Below, in pieces: positions 33,001 through 36,000 of a DNA stretch of 64,000 nt. The DNA comes from Escherichia coli. Lineage in GTDB: Bacteria > Pseudomonadota > Gammaproteobacteria > Enterobacterales > Enterobacteriaceae. The stretch's first letter is position 1. Each line of letters opens with the position of its first letter. A program made the position numbers. The stretch lies in the NCBI RefSeq assembly GCF_048403405.1, contig NZ_CP183129.1; one strand, given 5' to 3'.

Positions 33001-36000
33001 CATTAATTTGACGCTGATGCTTACTTTAAATTGTTATTATTTTTTGCCCACTTTTTTAATCTTCCATTCGCGTTGGTATAAGGCGAAGATGTATTAAATG
33101 AGATCATTCGGCCCATCGTCCATTTTTTGTATCATGGTTCACCATACAAAACATCATCAGTTCGTTCATCAATAAGCTTTTGTAGTGGTCAACTAAAACT
33201 GGCCACGGTTTTAGAGTTTTTTCGGTATCGGTTTTCCGATTCATTTGGTGGTAATCCACCGTTATATTCGTGCGGCCTGAGTTCGCTGTAATACCCGACG
33301 ATATAACCCGTTATCGCTTGAGCAGCTTCACTGAAGCTGGTGTAGCCTGTCACCGGCATCCACTCATTTTTCAGACTCCTGAAAAAGCGCTCCATCGGAC
33401 TGTTGACGCTCCTATGTCAAGAGCGGCGATTGGCATATGCGAGGTCCGATAAAATCAATGGATAGAGCTCACGGACGATGTAGCGTTTTAGGCATCTCAG
33501 GATCTCTTTAGTCGATAGCCCTTCACCAGTTCGTCTGTCGACATAGATTCTCGTGCGCGGATCGCTACGCATACGTACAAGGGCTATTGTCCACAGGGCA
33601 TTGTTTGCTTCACGTGAGCCACCACGGTTTAATCTGTGCCTTACTGTTTTCCCTGATGATGCTGGCAGTGGATTTACGCCACAGAGCGATGCCAGGGCCG
33701 CTTCATTTTTTAAACGTTCGGGGTTATCACCCGCAACTGCCAGCAGTGTTGCAGCCGTCTGTGGCCCAACGCCAAACTGGCTACGAAGGTTACTGGCATA
33801 CTTGCGGGTCAGTTTATCTAGTGATTCGTCTAGTTCATTCAACTCTTCAGTCAGGGCCATCCATCGTTTCGCAAGGCTTCGAAGCGTACTGCACAAGGCT
33901 ATACGTAACGGTGAGTGCTCTGACACTTCGCTGTTAATGCAGGCAGTTACGCATTCGTGTGGTTTCGATTTCCAGAGTTTGTCGCGAACATCTTGCGGGG
34001 CACTAACCAGCAGTGCACGAAGCTGATTAATCGCCTGCGTACAGGCTTTTACTGCACTACGTCGGGCAACACTAATAATCCGGAGAGCCTCACATGCACC
34101 TGACTGCATTTTTGGTATGGCCTTGCTGCTCCCTGAAAGCACTGTCCGGGCTGCATTTTCTGCATCTAGTGGATCTGACTTCCCTTCAAGGCGGCGTTTT
34201 GAGCGATCTGGCCGGTTAACTTCAACAACATAAATGCTATTCTTGATGAGATAGCGTGTTAATGCGGCACCATATGTTCCTGTTCCTTCGATGCCTGCTC
34301 GTTCGAGGCTACCGAAAGAACGTGCCCAATCAAGTAGTTCCAGATAGCCCGCTTGATTTGTTTGAATAATGTGAGTTCCAAGCAGTTTACCTGCCTGACT
34401 GATAACAGCGCCGACATGAATATCAAGATGGGTATCGACACCCAGAATCACGGTTTCAGAAGATTGGCGGTCGTTTTGCATGGTTTGCCTCCAGATATTG
34501 GTAGCACAATCATCCCCATCGCAGGACAGGACACTCGGGATGCAGCACAAAGCTCCTATCAGGTCACAAACTCTGGGCCCGGTTATGCCCGGGAAATACC
34601 AGAATCGGACGACAGGTCAACACAAAGGCATTTGAGCCAATCCCAGCACGGGTCAGTCCGATCCGGTATTTGAAAGTATATTAGAATGAGTATCCCAGCA
34701 GTTTCCGCGCCTGCTCATACTTTGCCTGATCCGGTATCGCCACAGTAACTGCCTGAACTACCTGCTTGTATAGTGACTACCCTAATCACTGTGGAACATA
34801 ACCCCGGATGGCTTACCGCGTCTTTCCCATGCCATTTTCAGTGCTTTGGTGGTCAGCCTGCTGTCCGGAGAGAACGACATTGCCCACCCCACGGGTTTCC
34901 GTGCAAATAGATCGAGTACCACAGCAAGGTAAGTCCGGCGTTTACCTGTCCAGATATACGTCACATCGCCGCACCATACCTGGTCAGGCACTGTCACTGC
35001 AAACTGACGTCCGAGGTGATTCGGGATAGCAATATGTTCGTGTCCCCCACGTCTATATCGGTGAACAGGCTGCTGACAACTCACCAGCCCCAGCTTCCTC
35101 ATAAGATGGCCGGCAAGCCATCGTTCCATCCGGAAGCCCCTGTGTGTGGCCATTGTGGCGATACTTCTTGCATCCTCGGAGCCATGACTGAGGCCGTGTA
35201 GTTCCTGAACCTGACTGCGTAATACAGCTAGCCTGCTATCCGGCTTGTCAGGACGGTTTTTCCGGTATTTATAGCTGCTGCGGTGAACCCCAAACACGTG
35301 GCAAAGCGTGGCCACAGGATAATGCGCTCTGAGTTTCCCGATTATCGAGAGTTGTTCAGGGAATCTGACATCAAGAGCGCAGTAGCCTTTTTTAATATTT
35401 CATTTTCCATTTCAATACGTTGAAGTTTTTTCTTCAGCTCACGTATCTCAATTTGCTCCGGCGTGATAGGGGAGGCTTTAGGTGTTTTGCCGGCACGTTC
35501 ATCTCGTAGCTGCTTTACCCACCGGGTCATAGTGGAAAGTCCGACATCCATGGCATTTGCGGCATCTGCAACCGTATAGTGTTGATCCACCACTAACTGA
35601 GCGGATTCACGTCTGAATTCTGCACTGAAATTTCGTTTTTTCATTAAAGCACCAGTGTTGTCCTGAGGGTATTCATTTCGTCGAAGGTGAGTCCCAGAGA
35701 TTCACGATGGTGAATATTGTCTTCTTTCAGCGCACGCAGGGCATCTGTTAATACGGCGTAATTCAGAGACGGAATCATGATTTCGGACCTTCCTTAAACA
35801 CTTCAGCGGTTGGCTAATTTGAGGTTGATCCATTCATCAATTTCAGATTCGAGCCAGGCTACGCTGGCAGGGCCAACCTTTATTATTGAACGAGGAAAAG
35901 AGCCCCCTTTCATATACAGATAGATTTGCGAGCGTTTCAGACCGGTTTTTTCTTCGACCTGTTTCAGGCGTAATAACTGATGTGATGTCATGATTTTCTC

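Follow-up and report, generated by a model that had tools for sequence, protein, structure and literature searches.

IS4321 and IS5075, insertion sequences (ISs) of the IS1111 group, target the terminal repeats of Tn21-family transposons. IS4321 is named as a known targeted case in the study of ISEc21 by Siddiquee et al. (PMC11187229), according to which ISEc21 targets IS3-family transposase genes through a seekRNA, with the target codons lying around the DDE motif's second D. Guidance by RNA has been shown experimentally for IS621 and ISEc21 (PMC11208160, PMC11208158, PMC11187229). The element considered here belongs to the IS110 family and lies inside orfB of an IS911-like, IS3-family element of Escherichia coli (RefSeq assembly GCF_048403405.1, contig NZ_CP183129.1); the window, to which all coordinates refer, is the whole stretch of DNA that was analysed, 64,000 nucleotides (nt) in length. 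The insertion site is specific to the lineage and not random, and we consider it very likely that the IS3-family element was entered within orfB by a bridge-RNA-guided IS110 element, that it has decayed, and that it now persists as a relic within an island.

Boundaries of the nested elements

All features of the region 33181-35778 lie on the minus strand (Table 1). Pfam hits of the IS110 type (PF01548, 1.8e-21; PF02371, Transposase_20, 1.4e-20) span 33417-34550, and pieces of the rve domain flank the IS110 gene at 34782-35315 and 33189-33395. Nucleotide homology (blastn, 82.5-83.6%) to annotated IS911 and ISEc52 runs from 35668 to 34691 and again from 33404 to 33181, the two segments meeting at adjacent reference positions with one A common to both. 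Together with the RefSeq annotation of the identical locus in other E. coli genomes, these matches bear out the nesting proposed in a first-pass annotation of the window, whose coordinates need revision. The junctions given there, 34782 and 33395, are ends of open reading frames and not breaks, the true ones being 34691/34692 and 33404/33405; the insert, put at 1.38 kb, measures 1,287 bp (33404/5-34690/1), because the stop at 34782-34784 is a nonsense codon inside orfB; and the IS3 homology stops at 35668, short of the outer limit of 35735. The two parts of orfB do form a contiguous frame, as had been anticipated, but at 34692..35315 and ..33404, since the coordinates suggested for the join omit 100 nt (91 + 9) and shift the frame. 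Joined from 34692 to 33404, OrfB continues without a gap and is 85% identical to IS911 OrfB.

The empty site is provided by an intact element of Providencia rettgeri (locus L045; 1,249 bp, with both inverted repeats), which reads GGTAACTGCTGGGATAACAGTCCGATGG at this position, and the joined 1,201 nt of the window align in one piece, at 88-90.5% identity, with intact 1,249-bp IS3-family elements on plasmids of Providencia, Proteus and Morganella. Relatives with 90-97% identity, found in other contexts in further E. coli records, coincide with the IS110 element over precisely nt 1-1286, which therefore marks the limits of the mobile unit. Its two termini share no inverted repeat, and there is no target duplication, only the single ambiguous A at the junction. 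The transposase coding sequence is preceded by 209 nt of non-coding DNA and followed by 12 nt. Its sole NCBIfam label is the generic IS110 model NF033542 (177 bits against a cutoff of 140), and its motifs GVDTH (aa 14), IEGTG (aa 64), SDPLDAE (aa 102) and ASSGK (aa 274) align with those of the ISEc21-like protein; by analogy with IS621, they would supply the catalytic D, E, D, D and Ser residues. In a search for a name for the element, its peptides found no match in the ISfinder-derived FASTA supplement of PMC11187229.

The host element shares with IS911 and ISEc52 the order of orfA (HTH_Tnp_1), an A6G frameshift site and orfB (rve), as well as related inverted repeats. Under the ISfinder convention, copies of the same IS have about 95% nucleotide identity or more. 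At 82.5-83% to annotated IS911 and ISEc52, the host is IS911-like but is not IS911, as it had first been called; it is closer (88-90.5%) to the Morganellaceae element, and it is truncated and nonsense-mutated. A search for an uninterrupted close copy in E. coli returned only relatives of 82% identity, the intact copies being found on the Morganellaceae plasmids instead. Compared with the L045 reference, orfA, the frameshift site, orfB and the right inverted repeat are present, whereas the first 48 bp, including the left inverted repeat, are absent. The 5' part of orfB carries two in-frame TAG stops, the one at 34782-34784 (CAG to TAG) and another eight codons further, at 34758-34760.

The split separates the Asp codon of the conserved GNCWDN motif from the Asn codon that follows it. 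The catalytic Glu comes four codons later, 35 residues after the Asp of HSD and 7 before a Lys. This DD(35)E-K arrangement is the signature of IS3 transposases. Because the split is inside the DDE domain, the host transposase is disabled by the insertion.

Table 1. Coordinates of the nested elements, the predicted RNA modules and the adjoining gene fragments in the window.
Feature	Position	Strand	Evidence or remark
ClbS/DfsB-like C-terminal fragment	33021..33176	-	Last 51 codons, one internal stop; adjoins right inverted repeat; Prokaryotic Genome Annotation Pipeline (PGAP)
IS911-like IS3-family remnant, with IS110 insert	33181..35668	-	blastn to IS911/ISEc52 and one-piece alignment
Right inverted repeat of IS3-family element, TGTAGTGGTCAACTAAAACTGGCCAC	33181..33206	-	Intact; compared with ends of IS911, ISEc52 and L045
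orfB 3' part (NSPMERFF... to stop; catalytic E, K at +7)	33189..33404	-	rve_3, rve_2; PGAP pseudogene with same coordinates
IS110-family element, 1,287 bp	33404..34690	-	Empty-site comparison; one A ambiguous between 33404 and 34691
Right end of IS110 element, TTGACATAGGAGCGTC	33405..33420	-	Clade-invariant; -35-like TTGACA at 33415-33420 and left-donor sequence
IS110-family transposase, intact, 354 aa	33417..34481	-	DEDD/RuvC-like domain and Ser-containing C-terminal domain
Left-end non-coding region, 209 nt (predicted bridge RNA/seekRNA)	34482..34690	-	-10-like TAATAT at 34678-34683
Predicted donor-binding module, element nt 124-167	34524..34567	-	8-mer identity, invariant blocks, compensatory change in L024
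Putative right donor guide and handshake nucleotides, CGAGUGUC	34530-34537	-	(U/C)GAGUG-UC block
Putative left donor guide, AUAGGAGC	34552-34559	-	Equals segment of invariant right end
Predicted target-binding module, element nt 20-97	34594..34671	-	Fold, covariation and 9-mer identity
Predicted right target guide and handshake nucleotides	34616-34624	-	Inside target-binding module
Predicted left target guide, UGCUGGGAU	34640-34648	-	9-mer identical to left target
orfB 5' part, ending ...RRGNCWD	34691..35315	-	PGAP pseudogene ends at 34692
orfA (HTH_Tnp_1)	35342..35644	-	A6G frameshift heptamer at 35387-35393
DUF2857 gene, N-terminal fragment	35665..35778	-	Pfam PF11198, PGAP, alignment; fused to IS internal position 49

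A conserved target site and a predicted guide RNA

A scan of one genome per species identified 26 loci whose proteins are 48-100% identical to the IS110 transposase. Relatives (62-100% at the protein level) lie between OrfB halves that are split at residue 237 of IS911 OrfB; this holds for L002 and L005-L011 of E. coli and for 26 loci of other genera. Such bracketed relatives, located by tblastn with IS911 OrfB, occur in Enterobacterales, Paraburkholderia, Methylovulum, Methylobacter, Nitrosomonas, Rhodoferax and one Oceanospirillales genome. Clustering of the flanks yields at least 12 distinct IS3 left flanks, all of the form ...SMSR(R/K)GNCWD, and 14 right flanks of the form N(S/A)xxE(R/S)F..., and the transposase is co-oriented with orfB in every clustered IS3 flank. 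The shared Asp-Asn boundary and orientation in these hosts strongly uphold the earlier suggestion that the position reflects the target specificity of the IS110 element. In the E. coli relatives, whose hosts are IS911/ISEc52-like elements and, beside nhaA, another IS3-group element, the site reads ...GG(A/C)AACTGCTGGGATA before the boundary and A(ACAG or ATGC)... after it. The two insertions outside IS3 elements (L018 and L025) keep the sequence TG(C/T)TGGGA(T/C)A.

The 209-nt left end contains a 78-nt segment (nt 20-97) that folds into a long stem, an internal loop and a 12-nt apical hairpin (minimum free energy -31.3 kcal/mol, z = -5.8, reached by none of 200 shuffles). The folding signal is confined to this segment, the whole left end giving only z = -1.7. 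Across 16 relatives, 92% of the cells are paired in the specified structure and 14 pairs show compensatory changes, a result equalled by none of 500 shuffles, and sliding the stem partners lowers the pairing to 30-51%; the RNAalifold consensus likewise supports the stem, the internal loop and the apical hairpin. The 5' side of the loop is invariant, GUGCUGGGAUU, and contains nine nucleotides identical to the left target TGCTGGGAT, a match that 39 of 5,000 shuffles also attained. The sequence of the 3' side is UUUG(U/C)(G/A)UUGACC, of which UGUUG is complementary to (T/C)AACA of the target, and the AC that follows fits the GT of the donor. Guide blocks are invariant across the clade, and position 69 of the guide covaries with position 12 of the target, a C being found with G targets (L023, L024 and L026) and a U with A targets (the window, L016 and L019). 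The left and right target guides correspond to element nt 43-51 and 67-73.

In IS621, the target module comprises a 9-nt left guide, a 1-nt linker, a 12-nt stem-loop, a 2-nt linker, a right guide of 3 + 4 nt and 2 handshake nucleotides (PMC11208158). The segment lengths predicted here, 9-1-12-2-3-4-2, equal those of IS621 with an offset of 7 nt. The left guide, being identical to the left target, would pair with the bottom strand, and the G/U-rich UGUGUUG would pair with the (T/C)A core and the right target. The next AC would pair with the donor GT after strand exchange, which is the expectation of the IS621 'handshake' model (PMC11208158). We also note that the 5' strand of the stem, AUCGGACUG (window 34654-34662, nt 29-37), shows complementarity to nine bases in the right flank, CAGTCCGAT (33385-33403; 25 of 5,000 shuffles). 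The flank sequence is also present in the intact Providencia host, and the match to the stem strand is absent in distant relatives; this complementarity may be due to chance or may be a lineage-specific extension of the guide.

The second module is predicted to bind the donor. Its putative left guide shares an 8-nt identity with the right end, a match attained in 128 of 5,000 shuffles and offset by 3 nt from the crossover, unless a mismatch and two wobble pairs are admitted. Its (U/C)GAGUG block (nt 154-159) is complementary to the CACTC(A) that would form at the circle junction. A compensatory pair is seen in L024, where the left end CTGA accompanies the guide UCAGUG, as against CTCA with UGAGUG in the others. 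Another candidate for the right donor guide, GGAUGA-UU-GUG (nt 176-186), suggested by analogy to the two flipped-out U of IS621, was dropped, because its region is variable in the alignment whereas the (U/C)GAGUG block is conserved and covaries in L024.

All junctions are compatible with a (C/T)A core. Where the host Asp codon is GAC, both junctions read CA. In hosts with GAT, TA is kept at the left junction and the donor C (CA) appears at the right, with no exception among the loci for which both ends are available, a pattern that bears on the position of strand exchange relative to the core. An 'AT/GT' core with an invariant T, as in IS621, was rejected, as the junction sequences that it predicts are not observed.

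Joining the right end to the left end in silico (junction ...ATAGGAGCGTCACTCATTCTAATAT...) yields TTGACA-18 nt-TAATAT, which would place the start near nt 20. A circular intermediate with these ends joined would present a sigma-70-like promoter, positioned such that the RNA, predicted to be 78 to about 150 nt long, would begin at the base of the target module; upstream of the predicted RNA in the integrated copy, no sigma-70-like site was found.

Taken together, the locus would have arisen as follows. An IS911-related IS3-family element, closest to the 1,249-bp Morganellaceae element, came to adjoin a ClbS-like gene fragment, after which its orfB received the 1,287-bp IS110-type element, co-oriented with it and placed between the Asp and Asn codons, at a site that would have been picked by the element's own bridge RNA (seekRNA) from the left end. 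The loss of the first 48 bp of the IS3 element with its fusion to the DUF2857 fragment, and the two nonsense codons, would be later or have no fixed place in this order.

Alternative readings, order of events and the island

Nested insertion sequences are common, and the exact copy is seen in one genomic context only, so that a chance insertion with an uninformative position might be entertained. It is extremely improbable in light of the same codon boundary and orientation in at least 12 IS3-family hosts from several bacterial orders, and of the AAYTGYTGGGAYAAY pattern being expected only 0.11 times per 64 kb with one mismatch allowed; the identities of the host OrfBs to IS911 OrfB, 34-96%, exclude a single ancestral insertion. 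A site that is specific but read by the transposase protein, or through DNA structure, rather than by the left-end RNA is improbable, if somewhat less so. The guides barely vary, and conservation alone cannot separate RNA pairing from protein-binding sites. Yet the left end holds both the left-target and the right-end sequences, in the sense and order of an IS110-type bridge RNA and in the loop of a covarying stem, L024 and guide position 69 show compensatory changes, and the RNA guidance of IS621 and ISEc21 provides an experimental precedent. Ranking between these two in probability, and still a poor prospect, is an origin of the two orfB parts from separate IS3-family copies that homologous recombination between two IS110 copies brought together. 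Such an event is suggested at L013 (Mangrovibacter), where identity to IS911 OrfB is 96% for the left flank but only 49% for the right, the IS110 copies presumably having resided in different IS3 hosts. In the window, by contrast, both parts are equally far from IS911 (82.5% and 83.0%), and, joined, they align in one piece with single intact elements at 88-90.5%.

Several observations weigh against RNA-guided entry at a specific site. The exact IS110 copy shows no trace of recent movement, having the same neighbours at seven sampled places; a scan of 33000-36000 against Rfam at E <= 1 gave no match; and the donor module alone has no significant predicted fold (z = +0.29), while its left guide matches the right end three nt away from the crossover, its register being ambiguous. 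With guides almost invariant, the guide-target covariation rests on few positions, and mismatches occur, namely TGT targets against a UGC guide in L016 and L019 and an A opposite C in L023. Finally, the left flanks at L020 (1277-1292) and L027 (1277-1291), GATAGGAGGACA and, inside an IS3 orfA, ACAGGAGCGACA, resemble the element's own right end, that is, the donor and not the target. A donor-like left flank, CTAAGAAGGGCTCA, is also found for the ISEc21-like element at L009 (about 12-32), and all three may stem from recombination at donor-like pseudo-sites.

The sequence of events that the first-pass annotation had read from the locus, in which a second ClbS-like copy was cut by IS911 and IS911 then by IS110, stands in part. 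From the nesting it is certain that the IS3 element was there before the IS110 element, whereas it sets no order for the arrival beside ClbS, the 48-bp truncation and the nonsense mutations, and an interrupted IS3 element could move in trans. The right repeat at 33181 does adjoin the ClbS fragment, but the other IS end is missing, and neither a 5' part of ClbS nor a target duplication can be shown. It is therefore a real, if minority, possibility that the IS110 element entered the IS3 element elsewhere and that the interrupted element, or a larger segment, moved beside the ClbS fragment later. With the left end lost, no duplication ties the IS to ClbS, and the ClbS fragment travels with an ISEc53-like remnant, as on plasmids; against this, the same IS3::IS110 composite occurs in no other context among the fetched loci.

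The preferred reading, RNA-guided entry and decay, places the composite in an island. The window is a piece of the E. coli chromosome. Thirteen complete E. coli genomes carry the 2.8-kb region at 99.7-100% identity, and in them RefSeq gives the order ClbS/DfsB pseudogene, integrase-core fragment, IS110 family transposase, IS3 family transposase pseudogene, DUF2857 fragment and AlpA. A 4-kb structure including both outer junctions is present at 99.8-99.9% identity in Proteus mirabilis ATCC 29906 and Providencia stuartii NCTC11800. Thousands of contigs list the exact IS110 transposase protein, and at seven of the seven sampled places that encode it the neighbours are the same, AlpA on one flank and, on the opposite one, a TonB-receptor Plug-domain gene. 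Given these constant neighbours and the near-identity in Proteus and Providencia, the arrangement is a fixed relic, a passenger of an island common to P. mirabilis and P. stuartii, which we suspect to be an ICEPm1-type element. It is thus inherited and does not reflect recent activity in E. coli.

On the DUF2857 side, the gene fragment comprises the first ~36 codons and meets the IS3 remnant at ~35668/35669, in a deletion junction and not a transposition junction. Beyond it lies an intact AlpA-family regulator gene (35803-36060, minus strand), and the other flank holds a frameshifted ArdC-family pseudogene (31747-32669, plus strand); the ArdC pseudogene, the AlpA gene and the truncated DUF2857 gene look like the decayed backbone of an integrative element. 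The ClbS-like fragment, homologous to codons ~120-172 of a plasmid ClbS gene, is 85% identical in amino acids to the first copy in the window, an intact 172-aa ClbS/DfsB-like gene at ~15096-15611 (minus strand), and at only 85% identity the two are diverged paralogues and not a recent duplication. Directly downstream of the fragment, an ISL3-family (ISEc53-like) transposase remnant retains the left end and the first ~30 codons (~32909-33020, minus strand), and the pairing of ClbS with ISEc53 recurs on many E. coli plasmids, at 84.7% identity.

A messy stretch of the island is thereby resolved into layers, an IS3-family element, an IS110 insertion, and a deletion with decay. The nesting also explains why an 'IS110 family transposase' is so often annotated between two IS3 pseudogene pieces. 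One mobile element inactivates another and gains a landing site that is harmless, multicopy and horizontally travelling.

Comparison with described IS110 systems

No description of a lineage of IS110 elements that targets GNCWDN-coding DNA was found in the searchable literature or in the sequence set of PMC11187229 (ISfinder not consulted). We tentatively propose, in a judgement close to evenly balanced and leaning slightly towards doubt, that the relatives make up a distinct and widespread bridge-RNA lineage that lives only on IS3-family ISs and reads NCWDN-coding DNA with wobble-tolerant guides, a (C/T)A core and a minimal donor module. On that proposal, a U or G would stand opposite third-codon positions, and wobble pairs would absorb synonymous T/C changes. 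If so, a natural RNA guide would have evolved to read a protein motif through the degeneracy of its codons, in a compact bridge recombinase with a core other than CT. The conserved guides, non-CT core and compact donor module may be of interest for bridge-recombinase mining.

Of the described systems, IS4321 and IS5075 share with the window element a DEDD transposase and a specific target inside another mobile element. They differ in belonging to the IS1111 group, with the non-coding region downstream, inverted repeats that are subterminal, and a target that lies within a transposon terminal repeat.

IS621 (Durrant et al. 2024, PMC11208160; Hiraizumi et al. 2024, PMC11208158) shares an RNA encoded by the left end (here predicted), a -35 box in the right end with a -10 box in the left end, the segment lengths of the target module, a right guide whose last base, a G, faces the first base of the core, and a 2-nt handshake that fits non-cognate DNA. 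The core of IS621 is CT, in contrast to (C/T)A, and its targets are repetitive extragenic palindromic (REP)-like sequences and not an IS3 coding motif. Unlike IS621, the window element has no 5' stem-loop before the target module, and its donor module is much more compact, without the 22-nt stem-loop. Transposases of the IS621 branch have 315-330 aa (PMC11187229), as against 354 aa here.

ISEc21 (Siddiquee et al. 2024, PMC11187229) shares the IS110-type layout, in which the non-coding region is upstream (PMC11187229), a transposase of similar length (358 aa), insertion in a single orientation, with no duplication, into conserved coding sequence of IS3-family transposase genes, and a similar right-end layout (TTGAC...GGGCGTC). 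It is nevertheless a different element with a different target. The transposases are only 42% identical, the guide sequences differ, and an ISEc21-like insertion lies ~94 bp upstream in the same orfB, whereas the window element lies between the D and N of GNCWDN. At L002 (~4514-5930, minus strand), L007 and L009 (~30-1406), ISEc21 or an ISEc21-like element and a relative of the window element occupy the same IS3-family orfB, ~94 bp apart, and the doubly nested IS3::ISEc21::IS110 thus occurs on both plasmids and chromosomes of E. coli. The behaviour is the one already described for ISEc21, to which the lineage of the window adds a second, independent member that targets the catalytic core of IS3 transposases.

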